NCBI GenBank assembly: GCA_963665115.1
Contig: OY762007.1
Coordinates: 1,632,001-1,696,000 of the forward strand
Reading direction: 5' to 3'
Source of the DNA: an uncultured Rivularia sp.
GTDB taxonomy: Bacteria > Cyanobacteriota > Cyanobacteriia > Cyanobacteriales > Nostocaceae
DNA length: 64,000 bases
The translations under genes and the position numbers were made by a program. The stretch's first letter is position 1; every line of letters begins with the position of its first letter. Shown piece by piece: positions 5,996-46,843 of this stretch. The notes below the pieces were generated by a model, which was not told the origin of the DNA, made no database searches, and saw nothing but the letters and a program-made list of their open reading frames with translations.

Positions 5996-7542
5996 TCATT
6001 CCATTAGAGACGCAATAGTTCCATAAGATTTGTCAAATAGAACAGTGGCTGTTCCAGTTTCTCTATGTCTTGCTTTAGCTACAATCAGTTCTAATATCTT
6101 TTGGTCAGACGTATTCGGGTTATAATAAGTACTTAGGCAAAATTAATTGTGTATTTGTCATTGCGAGTGGAACGAAGTGAAACGAAGCATTCACCGAAGG
6201 TGTGGATCATCGCAGCACTTTGCGATTACTATGTCCTATCGGACACGCTTCGCTAACGCTGTCGCTCGTAATGACACAAATAATTTTGCACACCCACTTA
6301 CTCGTCCCTATATGCGAGGATAATGTTATCGGCAACCATCTCTAATATCCCCGACTGGCTAAGGTCGCTCATTGTTGGACGTTTAACTGGTCTACTTTCG
6401 ACAGCCCGATTAATTTGGGAAAGCGCCAATATGGGAACATTTAAATCGCCTGCCATTTTATAAATTTCCCTTGCTCCGCCTAATTCATAACTGCGATTGG
6501 CACTAGAATCTTCAGCCATCATCTGTAGGTAATCAATTACAACTAACCCTATTTTTCCTTTCTTGGTCTTGATTTGACGACATTCGTGAGCAATATCTGA
6601 AACTTTAATCCCCCTACTGTCACTAATGTAGAGCGGTAAAGTTGATGCAATATTGACAATCTTGTTGATATTGCTTAATTCCCAATCAGCCAAGGTTTCA
6701 CTCAAAGCTCGGTGTCTGCGGATGCGGTCGCTCGGTATCGGAACAAGGTCACAATTTTTATAATCGGAAGCAATGCTAATTAAACTCCATAAACGATATT
6801 CCAACTGCTCCTTAGTCATTTCCAATGAAAAAAATATCACTGGAAGAGAATGATGCAATATCATCCTCAGTGCCAGGTTTAAAGAGATAGCACTTTTACC
6901 CATTGACGGTCTGCCTGCAACCAAAGTTAAAGTACCTGGTTCAAATCCCACTATCAACTTATCTAGTTGCTTAAATCCTGTTGAATAAATAGGATTGACA
7001 TTTTCTATTTCTTTGTAAGCAGTAAAGGCTATTGTGCTGTTGTGTTCGGTATTAGAGCAAGTCCTTTGATTAGAAATTTGGAAGATTTTTTGTTCGGAAC
7101 TATCTAGTATTTGTGGTAGTTCAATTTCTGTCTGGTAGCCGAGTTGAACGATTTCGTTACCCGCTTTTATCAATTGCCTCCTTCTATACTTTTCCATAAT
7201 TAAATCGGCAAGAAAATCAATATTTACAGCTGATACTGTCCGGTCTACAAGTGTTGCTAATTTATTCCTACCACCTATGTTTTTAAGTAAATCGTGGTCA
7301 TTAAGCCAACTGATAATAGTTAGTAAATCTGTTGGTTTACCTTGATTATCTAGTTGTAGCGCAGCATTATAAATATCCTGATGACCTTTGATATAAAAAG
7401 CTTCTGAGATTAAGTAAAAACTGACTCGGGCGATAGCTTGAGGGTCTAGAATTATTCCACCGAGAACAGCTTCTTCAGCTTCTATATTTGCAGGGGGCAT
7501 TTGATGAATCATGTATTTATCCTTTTGGGAATTATGGTTCAA
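5996..7542 (-). pseudogene. dnaB: Replicative DNA helicase DnaB interrupted by a MITE
   Basis: PPANIEAEEAVLGG, AGRPSMGKS, FSLEM, VIDYLQ and LSQINR motifs; the C-terminus YYNPNTSDQKILELIVAKARHRETGTATVLFDK resumes at 6127 and ends at TGA 5996-5998. Confidence 0.92.
6128..6298. mobile_element. 171-bp MITE with TA target duplication (IS630/Tc1-like ends)
   Basis: TA at 6126-6127 and 6299-6300; imperfect inverted ends (gcaaaattaattgtgt / acacaaataattttgc; tgtcattgcgag / ctcgtaatgaca); removing it restores the dnaB frame. Confidence 0.85.
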
Positions 7543-8360
7543 TTTTCACGATTGCCTGAAGAGCTATTATTTTGGTGGCAATCGTCCTCTTGCAACAATG
7601 ACTCTTTACAAGCAACAGTTGCTGTAACGGTTTGTTCTTCTAATTTGCACTTCCACTTTTTCACTTGCTCTCTTGCTTGTATTCGAGAAAGTTCTTCTTG
7701 ATGCCTGGAACTTTGAGAAGCTTTATAAAAACGGTATTGAACTTCCCAACGGTTTTCTCCAGCTTTAGTTTTACTTGCTAACCATGCTTCTAAATCAATC
7801 ACCTCCTGACTAAGATTTTTCGCTTTTTCTTGACAAAAATTCAAAAAACTCGCTCGGTCGAAGTCTGAGAGAGTTTTTATAAAGTCTGAATAAGTCTTAA
7901 TAGTCTGAGGGGTTCTCAAATCACCATCTGACATAGGTTCTGGCTGCTGTTCGTTTCCTATAGGAAACTGAGATTCACTATGCGAAACCTTGTTTCCTAT
8001 AGGAAACTCAGTATCTTTGTATTGATCAGTGGTTATTTTAATTCTGACCTTCGATATTTGCGCCTCAATCAAACCAATATGGTCTAATTTTTTAACTGCT
8101 TTTGATGCTGCTCCTTTGGAGATGTTTAGCTCTTTAGCCATTTCCGTAATACTATATTCTAAGTGGTGATTACCTTCGGTAGAGCTTCGCTTAACGCCAA
8201 AAGGGTCGAGCGAGCGCAAGTAGTACAGCACCTTGATTTCGGCTCCCGTTAAGTTTTTCACAGTTTCTACCCATTCATCGTGAGTTAGTCGATAAAAAAG
8301 AGGTGTTTTATGTTTATTTTCGATAGAGTTATCGTTTACGCAGCAATTTCTGTGGGTCAT
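7539..8360 (-). CDS. Winged-HTH putative replication initiator
   Basis: LTGAEIKVLYYLRSLDPFG and SITEMAKELNISKGAASKAVKKL HTH; internal palindromic repeats; overlaps the dnaB start. Confidence 0.65.
   Translation of the reverse strand: MTHRNCCVNDNSIENKHKTPLFYRLTHDEWVETVKNLTGAEIKVLYYLRSLDPFGVKRSSTEGNHHLEYSITEMAKELNISKGAASKAVKKLDHIGLIEAQISKVRIKITTDQYKDTEFPIGNKVSHSESQFPIGNEQQPEPMSDGDLRTPQTIKTYSDFIKTLSDFDRASFLNFCQEKAKNLSQEVIDLEAWLASKTKAGENRWEVQYRFYKASQSSRHQEELSRIQAREQVKKWKCKLEEQTVTATVACKESLLQEDDCHQNNSSSGNREN
7953..8007. repeat. Iteron-like palindromes inside the initiator gene
   Basis: Perfect palindrome GTTTCCTATAGGAAAC at 7953-7968 and 7992-8007, with a degenerate copy at 7972-7988. Confidence 0.6.
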
Positions 8361-8510
8361 AATTTAAAAATAAGAAACATTCAAGCCGATTATTGGTCTA
8401 TTAATTGGACGCTTCAAAATCACTACCTCACGCTCGGTTGTTGGTGCTATGATATCGGTACTCAAAGCCGCCTCACTTATGCGTGAGTGGTCTTCCTTGA
8501 AAAGCAAGCA

Positions 8511-8556
8511 TTGCCGAAATAGCAATTAAAAAAATATAATATTGCTATATTAGCAA
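8511..8556. promoter_or_regulatory. Two putative operator palindromes TTGC-N7-GCAA
   Basis: ttgccgaaatagcaa (8511-8525) and ttgctatattagcaa (8542-8556) lie between the divergent rep and HTH genes. Confidence 0.5.
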
Positions 8557-8579
8557 TTTATCAGTAAAGAAATGTTGCG

Positions 8580-8915
8580 ATGAGCCAGCACAGAGAAATC
8601 TTTAATCAATTATTGTTGGCTTTTGATTATTCAGCCAAACAAGTTAGCGCTTGGACTGGAGTTCATCAAAGTCGTCTCAGTCGGTTTCGCACGGGAAAAC
8701 TTGATTTAGAAGCAGGAGAATTTTTCAGCTTGCTTGCCTGTATGCCGAAAGAATTTCAAGATAGTTTTTGGTTAAAGATTCGTACAGAAGAAATGGATTG
8801 GCGCGTCAAAATACTATCTGCGAGTGATAACGACATTGAAGAAATCCTTAGAGGACTGGCAGATCGATGGGCAAGCGTTGTAGATAAGGCAAAAATAGCA
8901 ACAAAACTTCCTTGA
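8580..8915 (+). CDS. XRE-like HTH transcriptional regulator
   Basis: SAKQVSAWTGVHQSRLSRFRTGK HTH; divergent from the rep-dnaB operon. Confidence 0.7.
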   Translation: MSQHREIFNQLLLAFDYSAKQVSAWTGVHQSRLSRFRTGKLDLEAGEFFSLLACMPKEFQDSFWLKIRTEEMDWRVKILSASDNDIEEILRGLADRWASVVDKAKIATKLP

Positions 8916-9114
8916 TGGCTCTATAAATCTTAGTATCTGAGCAACAAAACTTAAGAAGGCATCCGCCGAAAGAACGAAACTTGAATCGATTAATGTCTTA
9001 TTCCCTTCCGAATTGAGCTACCAGGCAAGTAGCCAATGTTATTTTTGAACGAAGCAACTAAACGCATTTTCAGCTTACATAATCTTTGCACTAAGCGTAA
9101 GCCATGCTGTGTTA

Positions 9115-9306
9115 TTAGAATACGAAAGGTTGTTCCTGTGTCTTCAGAGATATTCTTTGTTGGTGGGGCTTTGTTTTACGTGAATTTAGTTTCGGCAGGA
9201 ATGTGCCTCTTAGCCATAAAGTATTTCCACGCTGGTCGATAGTTATGCCAATTTTGGAAGCTCGCAATCTACCATTTGCTTGAGCAAGACGATTACTAAT
9301 ATCCAT
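9115..9306 (-). pseudogene. Tyrosine integrase N-terminal (arm-binding) fragment
   Basis: RLAQANGRLRASKIGITIDQRGNTLWLRGTFLPK..KPHQQRISL is typical of cyanobacterial phage-type integrase N-termini; no catalytic domain follows. Confidence 0.7.
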
Positions 9307-9555
9307 AAAAATTTACCCCAAAGTTTTTAAGGGACTGTTTTTTATAGATGTCACCCAATTTCAAGCGGACACACACGCAATACCCAACTGAGCAGCTTTT
9401 CTCAGATTTTAAATGGTAGCTAAAACTTGGACTAAATTTGTGCCTAAAATTGTGGGTTGATTCTACCGGATTTGACCTAAAATGGAACAAACGAAGAATC
9501 CGCTCCTCTAAGCTAGAAGGCGCTTGAGAAACGGGAAACAACGGAATATTAACAA

Positions 9556-9600
9556 AGGCGACACCCGGATTTGAACCGGGGGATGGAGGTTTTGCAGACC
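9556..9600 (-). other. 3' half of tRNA-Cys(GCA), attachment-site core
   Basis: GGTCTGCAAAACCTCCATCCCCCGGTTCAAATCCGGGTGTCGCCT gives the anticodon loop, T-arm and acceptor 3' strand; no 5' half or D-arm. Confidence 0.85.
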
Positions 9601-9741
9601 GATTGGCCGCTCCCCCAAACCCTTGCTGTAAGCGGCTTGTAAATTTCATACTTCGGTTTTTGGACTAAATTTGGACTAAACAATATTATTGATTAATTTA
9701 GGATGAACAAATAATTCGTTCCCTATTTGAAAGAGTATTTA

Positions 9742-10098
9742 TTAGTATGAACCAAAATCAACATCATTTAATTCGGACTCTTCAATTTCTGAAATGCCTC
9801 CCTTTGGTGACGGGTGGGCGATTGGGAAACTCAATAACAAGCTTTAAATCTCCTCCCATTGCCGCAATATACTTTTGTAAAGTTGAAATCATCAAATCGG
9901 TACGCTGTTCCAAACGAGAAATATTCCCTTGGTCAACTTGTAAAAGTTCTGCCATTTGTTTGCGGAGTAAATTTTCTGGCTTGTCTCAATTGCTGTCGGG
10001 GTCATTTCTTCTGCGATCAGCTTTTGTGATTCTTCTTCGATTTTTTTCTGTCGTTCTGGTGACAACTCTTGTAATTTTTCTCTAAAAGTTTTTCCCAT
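9742..10098 (-). pseudogene. HigA-like XRE antitoxin, frameshifted; only the cognate toxin's C-terminus survives at about 10100-10190
   Basis: LQELSPERQKKIEEE..LRQARK, QGNISRLEQRTDLMISTLQKYIAAMGGDLKLVIEFPNRPPVT. Confidence 0.75.
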
Positions 10099-10492
10099 AG
10101 GTTCTTCTCAATTTTCATCTTTTTGATTTTTGAGTGGGGTTAAGTGTTCTTCAAATCTGTCATCAACCGTCTTAATAAGTTGCTCAAGAACGAGAATAGG
10201 TTATTTCAAGGTGCGATCGCCACTAAAAAACCTAGTCTTATTGAGAATTAACTAATGTAATTGAGAATTTGGCTCCGAGTTCACCGGCATCGCGTTGCTC
10301 CCATTAATTCATCAGCGCGAGTATCAACTTCAGAACCGCTGCTGCTTGAGTAGTTTGTCTTATAATATTTAATAATAATGTACTAACAGTGTACAAGTTG
10401 CTTTCGAGCCACCTTTACGGAGGTTGTTGCTCAACTGAACCTTTTTGAAGATAAACTACCTTTCACCATTAAACCGAGGATGCGAGAGTTAA

Positions 10493-10762
10493 ATGACCGA
10501 ACCGCAAGTTGGATTTTCAGGGCTAACTGAAGTGGTAGAATTTTTAGCGAATTTCCCTACTCCCGAAGCTATTATTGCTTCGCGTCCGTCGGAAACTCTT
10601 CAAAGTCAGATTAGTAATTTGCTAGAAAAAAATAGGACTGTTGCTTTAACACCTGAAGATGAGAAAATATGGCAAGATTATCAGTATTTAGAACATATTG
10701 TAAGAATGGCAAAAGCTAGAGCTTTCTTAAAGCTGAAGGAAACTCAAGCGTTGTGGGAGTAA
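10493..10762 (+). CDS. Hypothetical protein of the family usually paired with an HNH gene; a possible HNH start remnant follows
   Basis: EVVEFLANFPTPEAII..RPSETLQ..LLEKN..LEHIVRMAKARA. Confidence 0.65.
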   Translation: MTEPQVGFSGLTEVVEFLANFPTPEAIIASRPSETLQSQISNLLEKNRTVALTPEDEKIWQDYQYLEHIVRMAKARAFLKLKETQALWE

Positions 10763-11780
10763 AACATATATCAACGCAGTTCTACGTAAACAGGTTTATC
10801 TGCATAGCAAGAGGACGATGTAAATGCGATTCAACGTATTCCTACGCGATAATTATCCTTTGAAGTTCATCGAATACCAAAAGTAATAATATGAAGTCCG
10901 GTTAATTACTTACTATATGGCGACTAGCAAAAAAATTGTTAGCCTTTAAAACCTGTATTTCAAGCATGAGAGGGGTTATTAATCAATAGCGGTCATATAA
11001 CGTTCATCAATTCGCGATTATATGCGGACAATTGTTTGTAGCAATGAGTTTGTACTAATAACAATCCAGCTACTATTACTAAATATAGGAACATGATTAT
11101 TCATGATGCTTGTTAACTTGATATTGAGCTTACAGTAATAGATTAGCTTCAGTAAATCGGTGTAAACTTTTTTTAGACTGATACATGGGAAAGTAAAAAT
11201 AGTACAAAATTCAACTGATTTATTGTCATAACATTACCTTTCTTCAGATTTGTTTATACCAACAGGTTTGAACCCCTTCATTTATTTAATAGGTTTATTC
11301 AGTTGAAGATTTATGCACTTCCGCTTCAAAGTAAGGTTACTAGGGATGGTAGAGTAGGATTTTTGTCGATTAAGTAGAGGAAACCCGAGTGCCAGTTAAT
11401 ACCGATTAACCCGATTTAAGTAGATATTATCCAGTCACCGGACTTGTATAAGAATTTGTTTATAGAGTTTCCAGTGCATACCGAAACACTTTCCGGCATT
11501 GTTTAGGAAATACTTGCGTTTATGAAGTACAGAGAAATTTGCTGATTTCTGGCTGTTTAAGGTTACGTTGCTTGAGCAGATGTGTTACCACAATTCCTAT
11601 ATGTAAGTAATATGCCTGTAAATATAAAAAATGTATTAAGTTACTCTTACGAATGGTTTTACTACACCTCAGATTAAAGTATAATATTCAATAAATTTTT
11701 GTAGGGCTATAGTTTTATATACATAATATAGCCAATGTATTCATTTAAGCAGAATCTTTTTTGTAGTTCCAAATAATGCT

Positions 11781-12668
11781 ATGAGATGGTCTATATCTAC
11801 ACATAATTGCTTTCGTAAATGTCAAAGACAATATTTTCTACAAAATGTCATGGCATTTCATAATGCTAAAGACCCAATTCGCCGGGAAGCATTTATGCTT
11901 AAACAATTTAGTAGTTTGAATGAATGGCGAGGAAGCTTAATCCATCGGGCCATAGAAAAATATTTTGTTCCATCTTTAAAACAAGCTCAACTTATTTCAG
12001 AAAATGAATTCATTCGACAAACAATTGCTTTAGGCAAAAGGCAATTAGAATTCTCTAAACAGCAAAAATATAAAGAACCTAATTTTAAGAAAAAAGATGC
12101 TGGCGATTCTTTTCTTGCATTACGAGAGCAAAAAGAAGATATTGATAGTTTTTATGAAACTATTATACAGTGCTGTAAATATCTTTATTCACAGACTCGC
12201 TTTCTAGCATTTTTACAAAATTGTCATCGTTATAGTGCAGAGAAACGAATACAATTTAAATTTAATGGTACCACGCTCATAGGTCAATTAGATTTAGTAT
12301 TAGAGTATAGTGATAAAAAACTATGTATTATTGATTGGAAAACAAATCGCAATCAAAATAGTGATTACTCAAAACAATTATATTTTTATGCTTTTGCGGC
12401 TTTAAATAATTGGAAAAATTATAATGCAGATGACTTATTGTTGGTTGAAGCCAATTTACTTCAAGGAAAGTTAATCAAACATAGGGTAAGTGAAAAAGAA
12501 TTATTGGAAATTGAAGACTTTATTTACCGTAGTACTTCGGATATTCAAGCTGTCACTAGAAACCAAAAATATAAAATAGAAGACTTAGAAAATTATAAAT
12601 ATGCAAATAGCTCACTATCTTGTGAATATTGTAAAATGGAAAAACTGTGTGTGAGGCTTGCTTCATGA
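11781..12668 (+). CDS. Cas4/RecB-like PD-(D/E)XK nuclease with predicted Fe-S cysteines (ACE-like Argonaute partner)
   Basis: N-terminal CQR cysteine plus C-terminal CEYCKMEKLC; GSLIH, E..GQLDLV..IIDWKT..QL motifs; ATGA overlap with ago. Confidence 0.88.
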   Translation: MRWSISTHNCFRKCQRQYFLQNVMAFHNAKDPIRREAFMLKQFSSLNEWRGSLIHRAIEKYFVPSLKQAQLISENEFIRQTIALGKRQLEFSKQQKYKEPNFKKKDAGDSFLALREQKEDIDSFYETIIQCCKYLYSQTRFLAFLQNCHRYSAEKRIQFKFNGTTLIGQLDLVLEYSDKKLCIIDWKTNRNQNSDYSKQLYFYAFAALNNWKNYNADDLLLVEANLLQGKLIKHRVSEKELLEIEDFIYRSTSDIQAVTRNQKYKIEDLENYKYANSSLSCEYCKMEKLCVRLAS

Positions 12669-15001
12669 TTACCCATAGGATTAATCTTTTTCCTATTAAT
12701 AACTTATCCGAATTAAACTGTACTTATAGACTTTTAGAAATAACTAATCTTCCAGAAAAGCACCCAACATATTTAGAAAATATTCATCGCTTGGCTGGGA
12801 TGGTTGCTTCTTCCATACGTAAACCGGTGTGTGTCTATTGGGAAGATAAAAAAGCTTATCTTGCAACTACTGCTTCTATCGATAAGATTAAATTACAATG
12901 GCGCTTAACTCCACACATTGCAAAGCTTGTTCCAAAATCTACTGTATATAAATTAGACTACAGTAATATTGGCGCTAACCAAGTTAAGCTAGCTCTTCGT
13001 TTACTAAGTTATCATATTCGCTCTGCATTGATAAAAACTCCAGAACTTTGGAACGATACTTCGAGAACATTTTACTTTCGGGAACCAATGAATTTTGGAG
13101 ACAATACCCAAGTTGATGTATTGCGAGGATTTACATATCAACTTCATTATCTATCAGACTGTAAAATTTACATTTCCTTAGACTTAATTGTTCGGTATAT
13201 CGATAGAATATCCTTGCTAGAACGTCTGAATGATGGAGAAGAAATAAACGATTTCAAAATGCAACATTTTCTCTATAAATTTGGCTTGCAGTGGTATCGA
13301 ATTCAATTAATAAATACTACAGGTAATTCAATTAAAGAACAATTATTTACCTCAGATAGAGATAATAATATATATAATGTTTTTGACTATACTTTGCAAC
13401 ACTCTAATGCGCCACATCTTGATGAAATAAAAGCATTAAACCATAATTCACCTGCAATTAGCTATAAATATCCTAATAAAAATATTGAACGTTACGGTGC
13501 TGCATCCTTATGCTTCAAAACATACAAAACTAATGACCCACAAGTATCAAGTTTACACAAGCATTCCATTCTAAAACCTCATGAACGTTTACAAAAAAGT
13601 GAGGATATTATAAGTAAGTATTTTCATTCTATTTTATTTGCTAACCGAACAAAACTTGACATAGCGTCTCAAGCTTATAAAAAAACTATAGAAAATTTCA
13701 AAATTCCCGATTTACTTTTTGGTAATCAAAAAGTGCTTCAGGTCAAAGTTAATACTGAAGAGACGGGAATCAATATTCAAGATTATGGAAAATCAAGATT
13801 AAATTGGTTGTTAAATAAAGAAATAGGTTTATTTACACGAGAATCACTACAACCTCAGTATTTATTTATACCTAATTCGCTCAACAGTTCTATTGCTAGA
13901 AAGTTTCAAGAAAATTTCATAACTCAAATGGAAAAGTTTTTATCACGAAAATATAGCATAAAAACAATTATTTATAATGACCGGGAAGCCAAAAATTTAT
14001 ATCAACAGGTAGAAGCTATTAAGCAAGCAGTTGAAGATAATAATATTGATAGAGGGCGAGGATTTTTAATCTTACCAGAGAGTGCTCATTCAGGTTTACA
14101 TAATTATATTAAACGAGAACTTTTTGACACTTTACAATTTCAGTGTGCAGATGCAGCTAAACTTAAACATTTTTTCTGTTCTAGTAATGAAGGTTATATT
14201 TTAAAAGAAAATAAGAGAAGAAAATTCATCTCTTATCTACGTAATGCAGCATTGGGAATGTTGTTAGTAAACCGTCAATGGGCATTCGCACTCAAAGACC
14301 CGCTATATTATGATGTGTACATAGGCATTGATGTTCTAAATGATTTTGCAGGCTTTACGTATATTTACAATGGAGGTAAAAAATGCTATTTCCGGCATTA
14401 TCCTGTTAATGGCGAAAAACTCACTAAAAAACAAATATTTAATATTCTTAAAAAAGATTTACAAAAAGATATCAGCGAATTAAAACTAAACCACAAATCA
14501 ATCGTTATTCATCGAGACGGACGCAGTTATCATGAGGAGGAGCAAGGTTTTTTTAAAGCAATCGAATTACTAAAAGAAGAAGGATTCTTAGCAGAAAATA
14601 TTCAAATTGGGGTAGTTGAGATCCATAAAACCAGCTCAGCACGTATAAGACTTTATTATGAAGAAAACGGAAGGATAAGTAATCCTTCAATTGGAGACTA
14701 CTTTATAATTAATGACCAAGAGGGTACTGTGTGTACAACTGGTAATCCGTTTAAATTTCCTGGGACAGCTAATCCTTTACATATTTTAATCGCGTATGGC
14801 AATTTAGACATTGCTAAAGTACTTCGCGATGTGTTTTCACTAGCACAGCTAGCAGCTTGGGCTGCTCCTGATAAAGCAGTCCGAAATCCAGTTACGATTA
14901 AAATAGGAGATACTTTTATTGAACACATTGCTAGTGATTCTGATACAGAAAATGCACTTTACAGTGAATATGAACTGGATGAAGAGGAGTTAGAAACATA
15001 A
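12665..15001 (+). CDS. ago: Long prokaryotic Argonaute with catalytic PIWI aspartates (778 aa from ATG 12665)
   Basis: PIWI motifs YIGIDV, IVIHRDGR, VEIHK, GTANPL, DVFSLAQL and PVTIKIGD; MID motif HNYIK..QC; length fits N-PAZ-MID-PIWI. Confidence 0.93.
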   Translation: MITHRINLFPINNLSELNCTYRLLEITNLPEKHPTYLENIHRLAGMVASSIRKPVCVYWEDKKAYLATTASIDKIKLQWRLTPHIAKLVPKSTVYKLDYSNIGANQVKLALRLLSYHIRSALIKTPELWNDTSRTFYFREPMNFGDNTQVDVLRGFTYQLHYLSDCKIYISLDLIVRYIDRISLLERLNDGEEINDFKMQHFLYKFGLQWYRIQLINTTGNSIKEQLFTSDRDNNIYNVFDYTLQHSNAPHLDEIKALNHNSPAISYKYPNKNIERYGAASLCFKTYKTNDPQVSSLHKHSILKPHERLQKSEDIISKYFHSILFANRTKLDIASQAYKKTIENFKIPDLLFGNQKVLQVKVNTEETGINIQDYGKSRLNWLLNKEIGLFTRESLQPQYLFIPNSLNSSIARKFQENFITQMEKFLSRKYSIKTIIYNDREAKNLYQQVEAIKQAVEDNNIDRGRGFLILPESAHSGLHNYIKRELFDTLQFQCADAAKLKHFFCSSNEGYILKENKRRKFISYLRNAALGMLLVNRQWAFALKDPLYYDVYIGIDVLNDFAGFTYIYNGGKKCYFRHYPVNGEKLTKKQIFNILKKDLQKDISELKLNHKSIVIHRDGRSYHEEEQGFFKAIELLKEEGFLAENIQIGVVEIHKTSSARIRLYYEENGRISNPSIGDYFIINDQEGTVCTTGNPFKFPGTANPLHILIAYGNLDIAKVLRDVFSLAQLAAWAAPDKAVRNPVTIKIGDTFIEHIASDSDTENALYSEYELDEEELET

Positions 15002-15016
15002 GGTAGGATAGAAAAG

Positions 15017-15454
15017 ATGAGTACAATAGGGATAGTTTCTCAGGAATATAAAAATACAGCTAACTTATTTAAAAAATTTAACGAAGCTATTGTTTTGCTT
15101 AAGAAATGTCATTTTAAACCTATAAGTTCGGCAAATATAAACGAGGAGGAAATTGTTGGTGCAAGAAAAGTAATAGCAAGCATTTTAAGTCAAATTATTG
15201 CACAACTTAATGACGATAATTTACCTAAAGAAAATAAACAAGAATTATCGCTGATTCCACCTTTTTTTATTAAACGTCTGCAAGAACAACATAGAGGAAG
15301 TCTTGAATGGTATATAGAGGATTTAAATAAAGTTTATAAAGCTCTTATGGAGAATCAAGCACTAACTTTAAGCTTTATAGATTGTCTTGATAAATTGTGC
15401 GAGCAGCTTGATGTGGAAACAACACGTTTGTATCGTAAATTACGGAGACGTTGA
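15017..15454 (+). CDS. Hypothetical alpha-helical protein, third gene of the ago operon
   Basis: 15-bp gap after ago with a purine-rich RBS; 145 aa; basic C-terminus RLYRKLRRR. Confidence 0.8.
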   Translation: MSTIGIVSQEYKNTANLFKKFNEAIVLLKKCHFKPISSANINEEEIVGARKVIASILSQIIAQLNDDNLPKENKQELSLIPPFFIKRLQEQHRGSLEWYIEDLNKVYKALMENQALTLSFIDCLDKLCEQLDVETTRLYRKLRRR

Positions 15455-15460
15455 GTAAAA

Positions 15461-16618
15461 ATGACATCTGAGTTTTTGCGCGGACAAGTTCAGTTACTGT
15501 TTAAGCGTTGTAATGTATTGCGAAAACATTTACAGTTGCTAAATAATTTACCAAAGGATATGAGCTTGTATGTAAATAATTTAGATGCAGAGCTTGAGAA
15601 GTTAGCACATGACATCAAGCTAATTGTTGAAGATCCAGATTTAGGTGTTGACTATCTTTTAAATAACCAAATTAATACATTTAGACGGTATACAGAACAA
15701 GTTAACTTAATAGAAGCTTATCCACTTAACTTATTAGACCAATTCAATCAGAAGGATTTGTATTTTTACTGTTTTGCTAAATATTTTTGTCAACAAATAC
15801 AATACGGGTACGAACCACCTCTAGTCAGTACTCATAGTAATGATTATTTCTATGCATTCACAACTGCAAATATGATTAGTCTTCCCTTGTGTGAAGACGA
15901 ATTTTTACTAGCAATACCAGATTTTGTGCATGAGCTAGGACATATATTCTATGATAAAAATGAAGAAGACATTTTTAGACCATTTGCCGAAGTTATAAAT
16001 ACATATGTGCAAGAACAAAAGCAAAACTTAGCTAATCAATCTTCCTCCAAAGCTTATCAAGATTATTTAAATTTGTTAAAAAAAACTTGGCTGCAAGAGT
16101 ATATTATCGAGTTCTCTTGTGATATTTTTGCTACCTACCTTGTGGGTGATGCTTATGGTTGGTCGCATTTGAGATTGATACTTCAATCACATTCAGAAAT
16201 ATATTATCCAAGCTTTGGTGAGGAAGGAACACATCCTTCTGATGAAGCGCGAATGAGAGCAATTTTAATAACATTGAATGAACTCAGAGATTCACAGCAG
16301 GCACAAAATATTTCTCAACAGTGGCAGCAGTATAAGAAAATTGTGCTTGATTCACCTAACGAAGAATATGCATATTGCTATCCAGATAATATTTTACAAA
16401 AACTTGCTCAAAATGTAATAAATGTATGTGATAAGGTTGGACTAATCTCTTACCAGAAACAACCATCCCAAGATGGTAATCTACCCTTTTTACTGCAACA
16501 AGCATGGAAGGAATTTCATAACAACCCTACAGAGTACGCAGAGTGGGAAGAGCAAAAAGTTAAGACTCTAAAATCAATGTTATTGCCGTCAACTTCTAAC
16601 AGACCCCTGGTGACTTAG
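15461..16618 (+). CDS. HExxH zinc metallopeptidase-like protein (Lit/U49- or M48-like)
   Basis: VHELGH, downstream EFSCD (third ligand) and GTHPSDEAR motifs; coiled-coil-like N-terminus; 6-bp gap to the previous gene. Confidence 0.75.
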
Positions 16619-16848
16619 TAATAGATATTTTCGCGGGTTCTAATACTACTGGTAAAGTTGCCGAAGTAGAAAATCGTTTGTGGTTGGCATTTGAGGAAAA
16701 ACCAGAATATTTAGCTGCTTCAACATTCCGATTTCTCACTAAAGAAAATACCGTCGATGAAATACAAGAAATTTATAATCTCATTATGCAGGGGGAGTCA
16801 GTAAATTTGAAAAATTATCAGAAGCAAACAGTATTAAACCTTTTCTAA
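16590..16848 (+). pseudogene. C-terminal remnant of a beta-class (M.PvuII-like) DNA methyltransferase
   Basis: [51 protein letters not shown]-binding motif I; not in the ORF track. Confidence 0.8.
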
Positions 16849-16892
16849 ATATAAGCGAGAAAAATAAATTTGACCAAATAGAGGAAACTTAA

Positions 16893-17699
16893 GTGCCAGT
16901 TAATGCCGACAAACCCGACTTATGGAAACAAGATATTGCTCAGTCGGTAAACTTGTACAACAACTGGTTTATGCAATTTGCTCCAGTAACATACCGCCAA
17001 ACCCGCACTCATACAACACAGCAAGTAGAATCAGCATTATCTTTTACTGCCAATTTGACTAATATTACACCTGGTACACTGCGGCAACATCCATCGGTAT
17101 TACAAATACTTCGGATGGCAACCGCACCACCAATAGCACGGGATAGACTTATTGGTTTGGCTGGTGTTTCGCCTAATTTAGTCAAAAATATGGAAGATAA
17201 GCAACGTATTCCACCAAGAATGGAAAGTACGCTTGTTGATATTGAATTGGAAAGAATTAGTCAAGTAATCGCACAGTTAATTGATAAAGGTATTTTTCCT
17301 GGTTACTCATATTTACCTGGTGGAACTAGATTAAAATTTAATAGTATTGAGCCAGGAAATTTTACATTTCGACTTAATATTCCGGTAAATTTACAATCTG
17401 GTAAAAAACAAGTTAATATTCCCGTAGATGCTGTAATTATGCCATTAAATTCATCGCCAAGTGATTTACCTTTATTAATAGAAGCAAAGTCCGCAGGAGA
17501 TTTCACAAATCCTAATAAGCGCCGCAAAGAAGAAGCAGCTAAAGTTGCACAATTAAAAAACAGTTATGGTAATAATATTCGTTTTATTCTATTCTTATGT
17601 GGATATTTTGACAGTGGATATTTAGCATATGAAGCAGCAGAAGGAATTGATTGGGTATGGGAACATCGCGTCGATGATTTAGCTTTATTTAACATATGA
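16893..17699 (+). CDS. XamI-family restriction endonuclease, probably with an internal in-frame deletion
   Basis: VNADKPDLWKQDIAQSV, LRMATAPPIARDRLIGLAG, IEAKSAGDFTNPNKRRKEEAAK and GIDWVWEHR motifs. Confidence 0.85.
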   Translation: MPVNADKPDLWKQDIAQSVNLYNNWFMQFAPVTYRQTRTHTTQQVESALSFTANLTNITPGTLRQHPSVLQILRMATAPPIARDRLIGLAGVSPNLVKNMEDKQRIPPRMESTLVDIELERISQVIAQLIDKGIFPGYSYLPGGTRLKFNSIEPGNFTFRLNIPVNLQSGKKQVNIPVDAVIMPLNSSPSDLPLLIEAKSAGDFTNPNKRRKEEAAKVAQLKNSYGNNIRFILFLCGYFDSGYLAYEAAEGIDWVWEHRVDDLALFNI

Positions 17700-19252
17700 A
17701 TTTCACTAAGTTAACGGAAGAAACGAGAATACAGCGTCAAAATAAACTCGACGCGAAAAAAACTCAAACTGAACGTAATAAGCTTGGTCAATTTGCTACG
17801 CCAACAGAATTGGCGGTCGAAATTATAGAATATTCTAAGAAATTACTATCACAAAATAAAAAAATAAAATTTCTTGACCCTGCATTTGGTACTGGTGCAT
17901 TTTACTCGGCACTGCTGCAACTATTTTCTCAATCGAAAATTGAATCTGCCGTAGGGTATGAAATTGATTCACACTATGGTAATGAGGCAATTTCACTGTG
18001 GAAAAATACACCGTTAAAAATAAATATTAGTGATTTTACAAAAGCTTTACCACCTAAAAATCAAGAGGAAAAAGCTAATCTAATCATTTGTAATCCACCT
18101 TATGTCCGCCACCATCATTTAAAGCGTAGTGATAAACTAAAACTACAAAATAAAAGTCTAAAAATAGCTGGAATTAAACTAAGTCAGTTAGCAAGTTTAT
18201 ATTGCCATTTCTTGTGTATTGCAGATGCCTGGATGGCGAAAAATGGAATTGCTGGATGGCTGATACCGAGTGGATTTATGGATGTAAATTATGGACAAGA
18301 AGTAAAAGATTATTTACTTAATAATGTAACGTTAATGCGCGTTCATCGTTTTTGTCCAAATGAAGTGCAGTTTGATGATGCGTTGGTATCAAGTACAATT
18401 ATTTGGTTCAAGAAAACTTTGCCGTCACTAAATCATACAATTGAGTTTACTTATGGCGGTAGTCTTACAGCACCCAAAGAGAGAAACTTAGTTACATCTG
18501 ACACATTACGCAATACTTCCAAGTGGACTAGCATTGGATTAGTATTTAAACCTAAAAACTTCAATTCTAAACAATTTAAATTAAAAGATTTATTCAATAT
18601 TAAACGCGGATTAGCAACGGGAGCCAATAATTTTTTCATTCTAACCAGAGAACAAGTTACTGCTCATCAAATTCCTACTCAGTTTTTGAAACCAATTTTA
18701 CCAAGTCCTCGCTATTTATTAGTAGAAGAAATTGAAACTGACATACTTGGTAATCCCCTTTTAGAACAGCAGTTATTCTTACTTGATTGTAATTTGCCTT
18801 TACCTGAAATACAAAATAACTATCCTACGCTTTGGCAATATCTCCAGATAGGTGAAGACAGCGGTATTAGTTCCCGCTACTTGTGTAAACATCGCACTCC
18901 TTGGTACTCTCAAGAAAATCGCTCTCCGACTCCATTCCTCTGCACTTACATGGGACGAAGTAATAGCAGTCGCAGAAAACCGTTCCGATTTATGCTGAAT
19001 CATTCGAGTGCGATCGCCACTAATGTGTACTTGATGTTATACCCGAAACCTATTCTAAATGAAGCTTTTTCGCGTCAGCCTTCATTGAAAAAGGATGTGT
19101 GGCTTGCTTTAAAAAATATTTCCGATGAAGCTCTAATTTCTGGAGGTCGGGTGTATGGAGGTGGTTTGCACAAATTAGAACCGAAGGAATTAGGAAATGT
19201 GCTTGTTGACTTATCGTCCATTGCTTACATTGACAATAAGCTAGTTTATTAG
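17696..19252 (+). CDS. N6-adenine DNA methyltransferase (gamma class) paired with the XamI-like REase
   Basis: GQFATP, FLDPAFGTG, NPPYVRH, IKRGLATGAN and GRVYGGGLHKLEPKEL motifs; ATGA overlap with the REase. Confidence 0.92.
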   Translation: MNFTKLTEETRIQRQNKLDAKKTQTERNKLGQFATPTELAVEIIEYSKKLLSQNKKIKFLDPAFGTGAFYSALLQLFSQSKIESAVGYEIDSHYGNEAISLWKNTPLKINISDFTKALPPKNQEEKANLIICNPPYVRHHHLKRSDKLKLQNKSLKIAGIKLSQLASLYCHFLCIADAWMAKNGIAGWLIPSGFMDVNYGQEVKDYLLNNVTLMRVHRFCPNEVQFDDALVSSTIIWFKKTLPSLNHTIEFTYGGSLTAPKERNLVTSDTLRNTSKWTSIGLVFKPKNFNSKQFKLKDLFNIKRGLATGANNFFILTREQVTAHQIPTQFLKPILPSPRYLLVEEIETDILGNPLLEQQLFLLDCNLPLPEIQNNYPTLWQYLQIGEDSGISSRYLCKHRTPWYSQENRSPTPFLCTYMGRSNSSRRKPFRFMLNHSSAIATNVYLMLYPKPILNEAFSRQPSLKKDVWLALKNISDEALISGGRVYGGGLHKLEPKELGNVLVDLSSIAYIDNKLVY

Positions 19253-19339: not shown

Positions 19340-19693
19340 TTAGCTTGCTGTTCGACCAGAACGAACATAGATTTGTTCTTTATCAATATCAAACAATTCC
19401 ATTTCAGTTTTGTAATCGCCGATTTTTACTTCCATATTAGAAAGCAAGTTTTCGACGTTTGGTTCATCTTTTTGATAAGGAATGTTCTCATCAATTTGAG
19501 TTCTGACAACACCAGGGATGAATTGTGTATCTATTATTGGTAATTTGTCATCAACTGCAATATCGACTAAGAAAATTTCGCACATTACAATAAAGATAAT
19601 CGCAAACAAAACAACCGGAAATAAGATATTGTTGATAGTTTGAATGGTAGTAGAAATTTCAAATGCCGAACAATCAAACAAAAATTTAAACAT
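19340..19693 (-). CDS. Hypothetical membrane protein
   Basis: One hydrophobic segment; co-oriented with the upstream cluster. Confidence 0.5.
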   Translation of the reverse strand: MFKFLFDCSAFEISTTIQTINNILFPVVLFAIIFIVMCEIFLVDIAVDDKLPIIDTQFIPGVVRTQIDENIPYQKDEPNVENLLSNMEVKIGDYKTEMELFDIDKEQIYVRSGRTAS

Positions 19694-19942
19694 TGTAGCT
19701 CCTCCAAATAGTTATTGGATGATTTGTAAATATCACCCAGTAGTGGGGAGATTCCTCCCCGTACTGAATGTATCTAACAAATCATGCCCATAATCCTGAA
19801 GGAAAGAGAGTTTTACTACTTTTTTGTAGCAGATAAACTAAGTTTCCCGAAATTTGCAGTGTTTTCCAAGAGATGAGTAGATAGACACCCTAAGTTATGA
19901 TAGGTTATTCTTGAATTTCTAGATTGAAGTTGGAAGTTTGAT

Positions 19943-21241
19943 TCATTGTCTGACCCTACTTTTATTAGCTTTCAACCATCCAATAAAAGTCACAAGATTA
20001 TAATTGTACTTAAGTTCTTGCGGCACAATTGATTCGTAAGGGTACACCGGAATACCATTCAATAAGAAACGGTATTGTCGTTCAATTTTTATATTGAACT
20101 TTGGGCAATTATTAACCCTAACATTAATACCCGTATCGCTAATTTCAACAGTAGCAATACCCTTCAACTGTTGAGCAAATTCATCAATTTTAGATGAATA
20201 ATCAAACTCAATTACAGTTCGTACTGAAAAATATTGAATGTAAGAAAGCAATCGAGCGTGTTCGCCCAACTCCACTAGTTTGTCTGAATCATCAAGAAGA
20301 ATTCCTGCCCACGAAAAATGAAATCTACGATTGGTGTAGTCATCCCAAAGAGTTAAAGTGCCGTCGTCATTTTTCATCAAAGTTGCTTGATTTACATCAA
20401 TGCTTTGATTCAACTGCTCAATTGTCTCTTCACGCTCGAATGGAAAATAAACCCGTTTTTGATGTTTATCGGACTGCCAATCGGGGCAAGTACAGTTAGA
20501 GTCGAACCCATATGGATGCATTCCGCAAACGATTTTATTTGCTCCATGAAAATTGCGACATCCAGCACATATTTCTAGATTAAAACTAGAGAATTCCTCA
20601 TAGGAAGATTTAAATTCTAATTGAGGACGGTAGAAATTAACAAATTCACAAACAGCATTCCAAGGGTTTGATTTTAAAGATGAAAATGCTTTTCCAATTA
20701 GCTTCTCCTCATCAAAATCGAGGTCAAATAATTCCATTAAGCTATTTTTACGACGTGAATCTAAAAAATCGTAAACAACAACTTTTCGTAATGCTTCATC
20801 TTCTATCCTTCCAACAATCAACTTCGTGTCGAGATGAGAACAACCTTCAATTCGCATTATCTGATAAAGATATAGCAAATCATTATTTTCAGTCGTTGGG
20901 ATACTCCCACTCGACTTAAATACTACGGGATTAGTATCATTAGAAGCTAAAGATTCCTGCTCATCATCCAAGTCAGCATCACTTACAATCGAAGCAACAC
21001 AAGCAGCAGCGAAAGAAGCAGATACAAATCCAACACCTCCTAGAAAGGTAGAACCCATTCCTAGATATAATGTTTGTTGAATTCGTTTATCTGGTATTGT
21101 CTTTACTCCAGCTTTTTCAAGACTAAATAAGCCAGCACCGCCAAAAACTGCTATCGCACCAACAGCAATTGCAACTAATGAAGTTGCTCCTACTGTCAGA
21201 TTAATTGCTTGAAATGCTTTGATACAAAATTTATTAAACAT
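19943..21241 (-). CDS. Hypothetical membrane-anchored protein with a Cys-rich motif
   Basis: Two N-terminal TM segments; CAGCRNFHG..CGMHPYG..CPDW. Confidence 0.7.
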   Translation of the reverse strand: MFNKFCIKAFQAINLTVGATSLVAIAVGAIAVFGGAGLFSLEKAGVKTIPDKRIQQTLYLGMGSTFLGGVGFVSASFAAACVASIVSDADLDDEQESLASNDTNPVVFKSSGSIPTTENNDLLYLYQIMRIEGCSHLDTKLIVGRIEDEALRKVVVYDFLDSRRKNSLMELFDLDFDEEKLIGKAFSSLKSNPWNAVCEFVNFYRPQLEFKSSYEEFSSFNLEICAGCRNFHGANKIVCGMHPYGFDSNCTCPDWQSDKHQKRVYFPFEREETIEQLNQSIDVNQATLMKNDDGTLTLWDDYTNRRFHFSWAGILLDDSDKLVELGEHARLLSYIQYFSVRTVIEFDYSSKIDEFAQQLKGIATVEISDTGINVRVNNCPKFNIKIERQYRFLLNGIPVYPYESIVPQELKYNYNLVTFIGWLKANKSRVRQ

Positions 21242-21484
21242 AGTTTATCCCTCTCTAATATAGGTAACAAAAGCAAAAGTTACTCTTGCCCCGGCATATT
21301 GACAATTGGGACTTGAGGAAAACAATTAACCTACGCCTTACTCTTTGTTTTCGGAATTATTTTAATTCCGTACTAATATTTTCAGTATCGGCAATCATTT
21401 ATCCCCAATGGTAATAGCAAGAATTGAACTTACTTTATTGACACTGCAATAATTCCACCAGGAATATCACCCATTAGAAAACTT

Positions 21485-23510
21485 TCAAATATCATCTTTA
21501 TTTCGCTCTTCCAAACCAGCAATAAATTCAGTAACAATATTCCTGATTCGCCTATATTTCCTACCATCAGCACGAGATAAATTAAACACCTCTTGCAATA
21601 TTTGATGCAGTTCGTAACCTCGACTATGGAGTGAATGAATCTGAGATTTGGTTAAATCATCAAGGTTAATGTTAAAATAAAATTCTTCCTTTTGATTATT
21701 TGTAATAAGTGAATCGGTTGTAGATTTTTTTGATTTTTTAGGGAAGTTTTGATTATCAGAAGTATTTTCAATCGAAAAAGTTAAAAAATCTAACCCGGAA
21801 TCCCAACAAGAAGTTTCACTAGGGGTACTCATCGCTTGCTCAAGATAATCCCCAAAATCAGCTTTTGTACCTAAAAATAAACCTTGAAGACGCATAACAC
21901 CTTTAGGAGACTTATACAACATATCCCCACTACCTAATAAACTAGCAGCACGGTTATCGTCGGGATTACCCAAAATAATTCCACTATCTTCAGGGACGGG
22001 ATACCATGAAAGCAACTTTACCGGAACAATTTGACCGAATCAGGGGTTTAATTACATCTTTATCGGGACGTTGGGTAAACAGAAAAATATTGATTCCCGC
22101 AGCACCTGCTTTAGCTAATAGCTTCATCAAATCCATTTCAATTGAGTCTTTGTAGCTACTGTCTGAAAGTAAATCAAAACATTCATCAGTTACAGAAACT
22201 ATTCGAGGCATGGGACAATCGGGAAACATCTGATTGTACTCTTTAATATTTTCAACTCCCACCCGTTTAAATTCCTCGTAGCGAAGTTCTTGCTCTGCTA
22301 CCAAATAGTTGAAAATTTGCAGGGTGTTAGCTGCATCTTCTGCAACGGGTGCGATGAGATGGGGAAGTCCATTGAAGCAAGTCAGAGATACTAATTTAAC
22401 GTCACTCAAAGCAAGTTTGACCAAACTGGGAGGATAGCGCAGTGCCAAATACAGAACCATTGCTTTTTCAAATTGACTCTTTCCTCCACCAGTCATACCC
22501 CCTCCCAAGGTGTGATAAACATTCGAGTCGCAAAGTGAAATTTCAATATAATTGCCATCAACATCCACACCACCGGGGATAACTATTCGATTAATATTAA
22601 TCTCACTTGTTAAGTCAACGTAATCACTGAAATGAGCTATCTGTCGTTCAAGTCTGGGAATATCAAATACAACAGCACCCGGTACAACAGATATCATTGG
22701 TGGGTTTTCAAAGCTCAATTCTTCTCCCAATTGCTGAACCAAATCGCTACCAAGTCCTTGAACCTTCTTGAAGCTAACTCCTTTTTTCAATTTGATTTTG
22801 ACACGTTTGAAAGTGGGACCAACTTTAGTATCGACATAGCTACAGCTAACACCAAAATCATTGAGGGTTTCGACTAAGGTGTCACCCACCTTATGATTAA
22901 ATTTTTCTTCGACTTCGGAAATGTCTTGTTCGGTGCTACTGATTAAATTACCGTTGTAGGGGTTTGTTTTACTGTTCGGTAAAGGTAAAGATGGAATTTC
23001 TCCAGTTTTTTTAGCAACTAATTCGGCTGTTTTATAGACCAATTGCTTGAGATAAATATTTTTTGTTGAAGAAGCAAGCTTAACTAACTCTTGATAGGAT
23101 TTACTTTCTTGATATAGCTTATATAGTTCCAGAATGAAAGCATCTCTTTCATATTTACTGATGTATCGATTGATTAAAATATACCCTAATGCTAGTTTGG
23201 AGAAAGCTAAATCTTCCAAGTTTAATTCTTCCGAGCAAACATCAATTATTCGGTCACAATCAGTACCGCTTGTTACAGCTTGGTAAATAATTGCAAATAA
23301 ATAATCATGGTCGTAATTCTTGACGGGGCGAATTATTTTACTACCAAAGTCCGCTTCTTGAAGGATATTTGCCACATACAACTGCTGGTTGAAATCAAAT
23401 AATTGTTCTGCTTCTGCAAGAATATATCGGTTAGATAATCCCTGTGATTTAAGAACAGTAACAGCTTGATGAATTTCGGTGTTAGTATAATTTGACATAT
23501 TAACGAACAA
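21485..23510 (-). CDS. FtsK/SpoIIIE-family DNA translocase (single +1 frameshift at about 21994)
   Basis: Walker A GGMTGGGKS, DVKLVSL, Walker B VTDEC, GAAGI..TQRP, and AASLLGSGDML in the second frame. Confidence 0.85.
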
Positions 23511-24590: not shown

Positions 24591-24825
24591 TCTGACAATT
24601 AGAATTGGTGGAACTCAGTAACTTCTCAAAATTGTTGAGAGGATTGTTGCAAATCGAATCAGTTGGTGTGGGTTTGGGTTTGGGTTGAGAAACAATCGCA
24701 GTGGAAATTGGGAATTTAATTTTTTGAGTTACATTACCCAAGTTGTAAAACTTAAGATATCCCGGTTGGAGAATATCCAGTACCCACACCAAGAAAGTCA
24801 CCCCAAAGAAAATTTTGACCAACAT
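24568..24825 (-). CDS. Small hypothetical membrane protein
   Basis: N-terminal TM segment; overlaps both neighbours. Confidence 0.6.
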   Translation of the reverse strand: MLVKIFFGVTFLVWVLDILQPGYLKFYNLGNVTQKIKFPISTAIVSQPKPKPTPTDSICNNPLNNFEKLLSSTNSNCQNANKTGN

Positions 24826-25310: not shown

Positions 25311-25319
25311 ATTTAACTC

Positions 25320-25820: not shown

Positions 25821-25883
25821 ACTAAAGTCTCCTTGGTTTAGGATTTGAGATTACAAACATTAATTAGAGCTTCGTTTGGTTAT

Positions 25884-26720: not shown

Positions 26721-26733
26721 TGGAACTAATCAT

Positions 26734-27199: not shown

Positions 27200-27207
27200 T
27201 TGATTAA

Positions 27208-42860: not shown

Positions 42861-43049
42861 ATTATGACGTTATGGTAGAAAAACCTCACCCCCAGCCCCT
42901 CTCCTTATTAAGTAGAGGGGGGTAAGAATTGAAGTCTTTCTCTTAAGATAGCGTAGTATTTAGTAACCGTATTTACCAATATTTTTATAAACTATCAGCC
43001 CATTCACGTACAATATTATGTGCGACTCCAGCTTTATTAAATCATTTTT

Positions 43050-46833: not shown

Positions 46834-46843
46834 CAATTACCAA

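Follow-up and report, generated by a model that had tools for sequence, protein, structure and literature searches.

A D-R pAgo operon of an uncultured Rivularia sp. and two overlooked core genes, encoding a predicted M48-like protease and its predicted small partner

Introduction

Work on prokaryotic Argonautes (pAgos) has defined a group, here called D-R pAgos, that uses DNA guides and has RNA targets; as described in the text of PMC9360449, these proteins carry a DEDD catalytic tetrad and a conserved lysine 3 residues before the last catalytic Asp, with a Cas4-like nuclease encoded upstream, and the PnyAgo group has a HKQK-type MID domain. Beside the nuclease, the operon text of that paper (its Fig. 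1b apart) names only a helix-turn-helix (HTH) or sigma-70 gene, and the natural role of D-R pAgos is stated there as open. Here we describe such an operon in an uncultured Rivularia sp. (assembly GCA_963665115.1, contig OY762007.1), located in a stretch of 64,000 nucleotides hereafter called the window. Its genes for a Cas4-like nuclease and a long catalytic Argonaute (Ago) are followed by gene 3, for a small helical protein, and gene 4, for a predicted zinc protease. The operon is an intact member of the widespread D-R pAgo operons, in which genes 3 and 4 are two overlooked core genes, and it represents a cyanobacterial form that lacks the HTH gene.

With the operons already described (PnyAgo/HpeAgo/MbpAgo and PliAgo/RslAgo groups, PMC9360449; VbAgo, PMC13219720; PADLOC class II) the locus shares its Ago lineage, the DEDD tetrad, the D-R lysine and the Cas4-like nuclease directly upstream, and its HKQ-type MID domain is like that of MbpAgo; unlike most of them, it has no HTH or sigma gene. 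The coupling of Ago to a Cas4-like nuclease had already been published together with the regulators (PMC9360449; PADLOC class II models). No description of genes 3 and 4 was found in the literature, although paywalled papers and the supplements of PMC6299218 and PMC12094033 could hold one. They are not named in three supplement files of PMC9360449 (text-word search); no peptidase is mentioned in the main text of PMC9360449, PMC12094033 or PMC6299218, nor a protease in the last; the accessible text of PMC13346755 mentions no operon and that of PMC13104665 does not treat gene context. The corresponding text of PMC3702460 goes no further than a zincin rarely fused to PIWI-RE, which is a separate family. 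An in vivo defence role for D-R pAgo operons was not found in the literature either.

The APACE1 system also co-encodes a long catalytic pAgo with a four-Cys Cas4-family nuclease (PMC12094033), but the window Ago and nuclease belong to different clades, and APACE1, a DNA-cutting system, lacks a protease pair. APACE2 is left uncharacterised in the text of the same paper, and the window pair may be APACE2. In function only, the locus resembles type III-E Craspase, where a guide-programmed RNA-cutting protein is combined with a protease and a small partner; a sigma factor accompanies one subgroup. The two share no family (DNA-guided Ago versus crRNA-guided Cas7-11, zinc gluzincin versus CHAT cysteine protease), the four operon proteins gave no match to Cas7-11 or TPR-CHAT Csx29 in Pfam, PADLOC and NCBIfam, and activation by target RNA has been shown for Craspase and is only proposed for the window operon. 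Like CapP/CapH and IrrE/DdrO (10.1101/2022.04.27.489752), the locus belongs to a kind of defence operon that contains an HExxH peptidase and usually has an Xre HTH gene in front. Unlike CapP and IrrE, which are M78 metallopeptidases, the gene 4 product appears M48-like, with 385 aa and a helical docking bundle, and unlike CapP/CapH its gene stands last in the operon, with a separate predicted plug and, in the window, no HTH gene. In peptidase M48 (HtpX, Ste24/ZMPSTE24, BepA-like) the edge strand, HExxH, ExxxD and HP...R follow one another as they do in gene 4, which differs from it in falling below the PF01435 cut-off, in having no membrane segments and in forming an unnamed family of its own.

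Genes 3 and 4 as near-constant partners of Argonaute

The linkage of the four genes was counted in two samples. A single-protein scan of genome contigs with gene 4 alone gave no match, and an alignment-based scan then yielded 45 genome loci; the second sample, selected by Ago, comprised the best 80 of 171 metagenome matches to a close Ago alignment and is biased to relatives of 32-64% identity. Split genes (e.g. in L004, L068, L087 and L104) were counted as present, and the counts express constancy among kin and not a P value. Ago was found just 5' of gene 4 in 43 of the 44 genome loci with at least 900 nt upstream (L018 had too little DNA), the exception being L044, a 136-aa fragment. Among Ago-selected loci, gene 3 was located 3' of Ago in 76/76 with at least 300 nt downstream (4 dropped), gene 4 followed in 64/64 with at least 900 nt downstream (16 dropped) and the nuclease stood 5' of Ago in 51/51 with at least 400 nt upstream (29 dropped). 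Surveys of whole genomes agree: in 401 from Bacteroidota the same 6 carry Ago and gene 4, adjacent to each other (one with a stop in gene 4), and in 401 from cyanobacteria 3 have both (3/3 strong hits), while in 2 the sole hit is a weak PIWI match to other Agos and in 2 it is a weak gene 4-like match (E 2e-7); one of the latter two was examined and had no Ago nearby. Whether homologues of genes 3 and 4 sit mostly away from pAgo had been put forward at the outset as the critical check, and the opposite was found.

Five of six plasmid hits were full-length Agos, all five with the four genes. Among the hosts on record are Cyanobacteria, Bacteroidota, Acidobacteriota, Chloroflexi, Proteobacteria, Cloacimonadota and archaea; the operon is not confined to cyanobacteria, and its four genes form one conserved unit in several phyla and in archaea. 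Characterised Agos are represented among these loci. In L039, from Pedobacter nyackensis DSM 19625, Ago has the published D563/E598/D632/D765 of PnyAgo; this locus and the Runella slithyformis plasmid locus of RslAgo (L163) have the order nuclease-Ago-gene 3-gene 4. The same order is kept in L010, whose Ago is identical to MbpAgo but for about 5 of 795 positions, and in L130 with a VbAgo-like Ago (E 1e-197), and L017 has a PliAgo-like Ago. Gene 4 and Ago share their history, with a distance correlation of 0.82 over 66 loci that are kin and not independent. In one pair of HTH-less cyanobacterial copies (L002 versus L167), dN/dS was 0.21 and 0.17 for genes 3 and 4 and 0.18 for Ago, values that mark genes 3 and 4 as being under purifying selection there.

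A 427-aa gene 4-like protein with HEVAH, EVFAD and HP...R is encoded at L183:817-2100 (genome G204) in a three-gene context without Ago, and the match in G380 scores equally. In L002 (a Nostoc metagenome-assembled genome; 1073-4164 and 15037-16993; L003 is similar) the four-gene operon stands directly 3' of Mu-transposase, TniB and TniQ genes, and a type I restriction-modification (R-M) remnant and a gene resembling Cas12k lie further on. A type V-K CRISPR-associated transposon probably carries the L002 operon as cargo. A viral-contig match to gene 4 was dropped, being a single match of 45 residues (E 1e-4) at a locus where none of the four profiles matched.

The Argonaute and its nuclease

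The window Ago matched PADLOC pAgo_II at E 7e-160. Among Protein Data Bank (PDB) entries it matched MbpAgo (8XIH/9WMD) at E 6e-105, a 7R8F-type entry at 1e-73, which we take to be PliAgo from its length and sequence, and VbAgo at 3e-30, followed only by weak short-pAgo rows. Not only the three PIWI aspartates noted in the initial annotation but the complete catalytic tetrad D556/E584/D618/D749 is present; it aligns with D563/E598/D632/D765 of PnyAgo, to which Ago is 27% identical over the full length. The identity of 9WMD as MbpAgo is given in the text of PMC13346755. The MID pocket (H479/K483/Q493/R537) has the same HKQR as the MbpAgo-like L010 and not the RHSY of the PliAgo group, and K746 is the lysine 3 residues before the last catalytic Asp, a position taken by F and Y in two outgroup Agos. 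In a FastTree phylogeny of 83 Agos (20 near-duplicates removed by hand; only two outgroups for the root), the first branch is the VbAgo-like L130, the next the RslAgo/PliAgo group and the third the PnyAgo/MbpAgo group, which is the sister of the window Ago's clade (bracketing-node supports 0.91-0.95). By this placement the window Ago nests among the D-R pAgos PnyAgo, MbpAgo, PliAgo, RslAgo and VbAgo, and because it does so its target is very probably RNA, recognised with a DNA guide.

The locus had at first been likened to the cyanobacterial long-A pAgos with ACE1 nucleases (APACE1), and its Ago read as a cleaver of invader DNA. Neither proposal was borne out: CtAgo (9IAD) was not matched at E<=1 in the PDB sequence search, the strong structural relatives are all RNA-cleaving pAgos, and the D-R lysine K746 is present. 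As a positive control, the second Ago of the same genome (G000 6977921-6980176), which is preceded by an ACE1-like gene, matched CtAgo 9IAD with 1089 bits, so the genome holds both APACE1 and the present operon, which are two different systems. In that APACE1 locus, outside the window (L128; G000:C1:6975730-6980176), the ACE1-like gene (6977064-6977930) overlaps the CtAgo-like Ago gene, and an Xre HTH gene with an IrrE-like HExxH gene, a CapH/CapP-like pair, lies divergent from it. A lone further ACE1-like gene is found at 5155882-5156739.

The nuclease matched Pfam PDDEXK_1 (E 1.5e-20) and the class II model PADLOC Aga_Cas4-like_Nuc (E 4.8e-56). Its PD-(D/E)XK core and four cysteines, recognised from the beginning, are kept in 34-35 of 35 homologues (C14, C281, C284, C290, D171, D185 and K187), with D171...D185-W-K187 as the catalytic motif; the cysteines would hold an iron-sulphur cluster. 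Its 295 residues, with the four Cys and D171/D185/K187, compare with 280-362 in 74 homologues; the ACE2 clade is described as having longer nucleases with four Cys and D-DxK. Against CtACE1 (9IAB) it reached only E 0.006 over a partial stretch, which places it outside the ACE1 clade. Judging from relatives, the nuclease probably generates the guide DNA.

Gene 4 as a predicted zinc protease

The HExxH, ExxxD and HP motifs that had suggested an active protease are almost invariant: H157 is kept in 89/90 homologues, and E158, H161, E217, D221, H258, P259 and R264 in 90/90. The structure model (pLDDT 94.8) comprises an N-terminal three-helix bundle (1-95), a short three-strand sheet with residues 128-133 as its edge strand, the HExxH helix (H157-E158-x-x-H161), a helix with E217-x-x-x-D221, and H258-P259...R264. 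HHalign against 22 cyanobacterial M48 domains gave a probability of 94% (E 1.4e-7, 155 columns) and aligned the edge strand, HExxH, ExxxD and THP...R of the two. With HExxH and a downstream Glu (E217) as third zinc ligand, gene 4 conforms to the gluzincins. Judging from relatives, protease activity is highly probable, and the family is predicted to be a new, M48-like gluzincin family.

Neither gene 3 nor gene 4 could be assigned to a curated family (Pfam, PADLOC, NCBIfam). None of 70 gene 4 members reached Pfam PF01435 (M48) at E<=0.05; M78 was reached by 1/70 (E 0.019) and the capP model by 1/70 (E 0.041), and a PDB sequence search with the gene 4 profile gave no match. Peptidase_M13 (E 7e-4, below cut-off) was rejected since the match does not cover HExxH. 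Hydropathy gave no membrane segment in gene 4. Fold searches with the whole-chain model returned lists filled by generic helical bundles resembling the N-terminal bundle; the only peptidase among the listed structural rows was ZMPSTE24, a weak match (Foldseek rank 4, E 0.65; VIA Z 7.2, rmsd 8.0-8.5, about 200 residues aligned). Gene 4 represents a large, unnamed family (346 clusters at E<=1e-30, 2014 at 1e-3), and in the atlas its nearest clusters are unnamed (0.98), the nearest named ones being M48/U49 peptidases (0.78-0.79, a lead only). Five longer homologues were checked, and two distinct ones, P0098 (L016:8001-9830) and P0152, are fused to a C-terminal CHAT domain with HFxGHG and LNxC motifs; this fusion to a domain with His and Cys motifs lends gene 4 an effector flavour. 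P0147 has a second HExxH region and P0167 an unknown tail.

Gene 3 and the predicted complex with gene 4

Gene 3 is modelled as a helical bundle (pLDDT 70.8) and is conserved mainly at its ends: M1, S2 (89/90), D/E3 (82/90), a hydrophobic residue at position 7 (L in 59, I in 21, Y in 4 and F in 2 of 90) and Y11 (83/90), and a C-terminal basic helix with FR(K/R)L. No effector family was matched, the fold search gave nothing at E<=0.001, and in the atlas gene 3 lies near unnamed clusters only (0.81). A membrane segment was not found (maximum 19-residue hydropathy 1.39; 2 of 107 above 1.6), and a pore-forming role, considered for gene 3, gained no support from hydropathy.

Gene 4 (residues 1-376), gene 3 and zinc were modelled as a complex in three runs, with three controls. 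The pair reached ipSAE values of 0.89, 0.89 and 0.87 versus 0.00 for the best control, the runs agreed in at least 93% of contacts, and partner pLDDT was at least 84; the ipSAE mark is reached by 116/157 solved complexes and 2/215 mismatched pairs, counts that hold only roughly for the present complex. In the model, gene 3 residues 1-12 touch the edge strand of gene 4 (126-135) and D154, H157, E158, H161, E217 and H258, and the long helices of gene 3 pack on the bundle helix 58-86. PDB sequence and fold searches gave no similar solved complex, so the prediction is unlikely to echo a solved pair. The model makes it very likely that gene 3 binds gene 4 with its N-terminus in the zinc cleft, plugging the active site. 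Of the three roles first offered for the 145-aa protein (adaptor, inhibitor or substrate), the model thus predicts either of the last two, acting on gene 4. An acidic residue at position 3 would suit an Asp-switch inhibitor, as in astacin; it is acidic in most homologues and Thr in the window copy.

Operon layout and genomic setting

The four co-oriented open reading frames (ORFs), with an ATGA overlap at 12665-12668 and gaps of 15 bp and 6 bp, were found as first described (Table 1). A GTG at 12647 would add 6 aa to Ago, and homologues begin at the ATG. The operon is unframeshifted, as had been claimed: one contig of run X1, which may be the assembly's own source, spans 11000-17296 with 0 differences. 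Two metagenome runs carry a handful of substitutions in the operon and lack one base at 16604, where the tail of gene 4 is not conserved; this deletion is the only frame change in the operon across contigs of three public runs. GC content is 0.30-0.33 versus about 0.37, making the operon AT-rich. The promoter scan performed at chance level (29 sigma-70-like matches versus 30.1 expected) and gives no evidence of function for the best match.

Table 1. Features of the operon in the window
Feature	Position	Strand	Basis
Cas4-like PD-(D/E)XK nuclease, 295 aa	11781..12668	+	Pfam PDDEXK_1, PADLOC, residue conservation
Long catalytic pAgo, 778 aa (ATG start)	12665..15001	+	PADLOC pAgo_II, PDB matches, motifs, tree
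Gene 3, predicted soluble helical-bundle protein, 145 aa	15017..15454	+	no family above cut-off; structure model, profile, complex model
Gene 4, predicted soluble M48-like gluzincin, 385 aa	15461..16618	+	structure model, HHalign, invariant residues
Best sigma-70-like promoter match (10/12), about 95 bp 5' of nuclease, unverified	11658..11685	+	promoter scan

The region contains genes for a DnaB-like protein, FtsK, a transposase, a type II R-M pair, DUF499/DUF1156 proteins and type III CRISPR RAMP/Cas10 proteins. The operon is flanked (6298-8915 and 19340-28189) by genes for a DnaB-like helicase, a replication-type HTH, an Xre-like protein, FtsK and an M23 peptidase, and these replication-type genes suggest that it lies within an integrated mobile element. 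Directly 3' of it (16893-19252) are genes for a XamI-like restriction endonuclease and an N6 methylase; at one place the former has 57 bases where contigs of two other runs have 213, and it may be a copy with an internal deletion. On the minus strand at 40986-50751, helicase, DUF1156 methylase, DUF7680 and DUF499 genes, with Uma2 genes in between, form what resembles a BREX-related cluster. Type III CRISPR-type genes (RAMPs, Cas_APE2256, and Cas10/Cmr2 divided between two ORFs) lie at 53402-61747, and a ThiF-family gene at the far end (62210-63403); on Runella and Spirosoma plasmids (L163:9232-11411; L166:89-2502), multiubiquitin, ThiF and DUF6527 genes flank the operon itself. The earlier statement that most neighbouring systems are damaged was checked in part, and held for the transposase (4151-5513) and Cas10/Cmr2 (58871-60575), each split over several ORFs; the XamI-like endonuclease gene may be shortened.

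A proposed mechanism

A possible mechanism joins the four genes into one response. The Cas4-like nuclease would make single-stranded DNA guides from invader DNA, and Ago would cut matching invader RNA; gene 3 would keep the gene 4 protease shut by plugging its active site until target-bound Ago releases the plug, and the freed protease would then cut cell proteins and arrest the infected cell. The whole chain is offered tentatively, as something a little short of an even prospect. In VbAgo an acidic tail blocks the channel until guide loading, and the protein dimerises on target RNA (PMC13219720); because of these two properties, and since the window Ago has a similar tail (12 acidic residues in the last 30), a possible trigger exists in the lineage. 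By analogy, the chances seem evenly balanced that a target-induced change of Ago, namely release of the tail or dimerisation, triggers the unplugging. The acidic tail of Ago and the basic C-terminal helix of gene 3 have opposite charges. Rather than regulating genes, the system would then stop growth or kill the cell. For the RNA-cutting Agos in general, it is conceivable, though somewhat doubtful, that they act as the sensor of a DNA-guided, RNA-triggered protease, with Ago pulling on the gene 3 plug or licensing its cleavage and so unleashing a new family of gluzincins on a host or regulatory protein.

Several points weigh against this mechanism. The coupling of Ago to genes 3 and 4 is inferred only, and the nearest characterised Ago is about 27-31% identical, so that RNA specificity is a phylogenetic inference bracketed by tested members. 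Gene 3 is the only substrate candidate identified for the protease, and the contact list fits both cutting and mere blocking of its N-terminus. Agos of the PnyAgo subgroup end in a weakly acidic tail (4-7 of 30), and their loci still keep genes 3 and 4. Distant gene 4-like proteins exist away from Ago (L183, E 2e-7), the loci in the linkage counts are related and not independent, and the HTH gene of most relatives favours a regulatory output.

The upstream regulator and other readings of genes 3 and 4

That last point leads to the alternative that survives best, which we nevertheless consider unlikely: genes 3 and 4 would be a regulatory arm, whose protease, once unplugged, cuts the operon's own HTH repressor or the partner of the sigma factor and so raises operon expression without cell death, as in CapP/CapH or Csx30/CASP-sigma. 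An HTH-type regulator stands directly 5' of the nuclease in 70/79 relatives with at least 700 nt upstream, after rescue with a hidden Markov model; before rescue, 42 of the 79 loci had an Xre HTH gene and 26 a gene for a partner of about 200 aa in this place. In Bacteroidota (L039:2830-4057; L165, L166) the operon starts with a sigma-70-like gene, followed by the partner of about 200 aa, which has weak HTH similarity and is a candidate anti-sigma factor and protease substrate; the text of PMC9360449 mentions only the sigma gene of this pair. A simple motif scan found no IrrE-like HExxH ORF just 5' of the regulator in 77/79 loci, and there are precedents in CapP, which cleaves CapH (10.1101/2022.04.27.489752), and Csx29, which cleaves a sigma inhibitor (PMC10028731). 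Against a regulatory arm, the operon-HTH profile found no regulator at 8400-11800 of the window (best E 0.044), and the HTH gene is also absent from four other cyanobacterial loci (L002-L004 and L167; gene 4 is split in L004), a lineage-specific loss without bearing on the Ago family. Regulation as the only role is less likely because these HTH-less loci keep genes 3 and 4 under purifying selection (dN/dS about 0.2, L002 versus L167). Additionally, the best operon-type HTH in the genome (79 bits versus 108-179 of true members) adjoins the APACE1 locus and its own IrrE-like gene, and gene 4 is not M78-like (1/70 members, E 0.019).

Somewhat less probable still is that gene 3 is a latent effector and dedicated substrate, from which loss of the first 5-7 residues would free the helical bundle as a toxin, e.g. 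on membranes. In the complex model gene 3 spans the catalytic residues with its N-terminus and binds the three-helix bundle through a second site, as expected of a dedicated substrate, and position 7 is hydrophobic, a hydrophobic residue being the usual P1' of gluzincins. Read with thermolysin subsites, however, a reversed, inhibitor-like register explains the top-ranked contacts (131-4, 132-5, 213/216-6) no less well, and gene 3 matches no effector family and has no membrane segment. Latent effectors activated by proteases are common in defence (PMC12642450).

It is quite improbable that Ago has no part in switching genes 3 and 4, which would then be a toxin-antitoxin or maintenance pair travelling with the operon, or that the protease serves only to mature or recycle Ago, e.g. 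by trimming the acidic tail. Copies on plasmids and as transposon cargo would suit a maintenance pair, as would the setting of the window copy, which has on either side replication-type genes (DnaB-like, FtsK) of the kind found on mobile elements, but close gene 4 homologues almost never occur without Ago (43/44; 6/6; 3/3 strong hits) and the two share their history, even if the loci are kin; the D-R Agos, moreover, are active when purified alone (PMC9360449). The version of the initial annotation, in which an APACE1-like Ago cleaves invader DNA with a protease branch added, has in its favour the cyanobacterial host, the Cas4 partner, the intact tetrad, weak DNA cleavage by PnyAgo at long times (PMC9360449) and residual DNA cleavage by MbpAgo (PMC13219720), and is nevertheless very improbable in view of the missing CtAgo match, which the second Ago of the genome gives at 1089 bits, and the E of only 0.006 between nuclease and CtACE1.

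Implications for the D-R pAgos

PliAgo, RslAgo, PnyAgo, MbpAgo and VbAgo have been studied as RNA tools, in the published texts without the two downstream genes, and this omission may explain why no defence role has been recorded for D-R pAgos. Genes 3 and 4 are the missing parts of these operons and offer testable residues in E158, gene 3 residues 1-12, and the tetrad and tail of Ago. The window copy adds two natural controls, since its HTH gene is absent and its genome is shared with a DNA-targeting APACE1 system. If target RNA does switch the protease, the operon would convert RNA into protease activity and could be programmed with cheap DNA guides. It would then be the equivalent, among Argonautes, of type III-E Craspase, assembled from unrelated components, and, judging by the literature searched, no earlier catalytic long pAgo joined to a protease effector would be on record. 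With the two genes in hand, the cellular role of RNA-cutting pAgos becomes directly testable.

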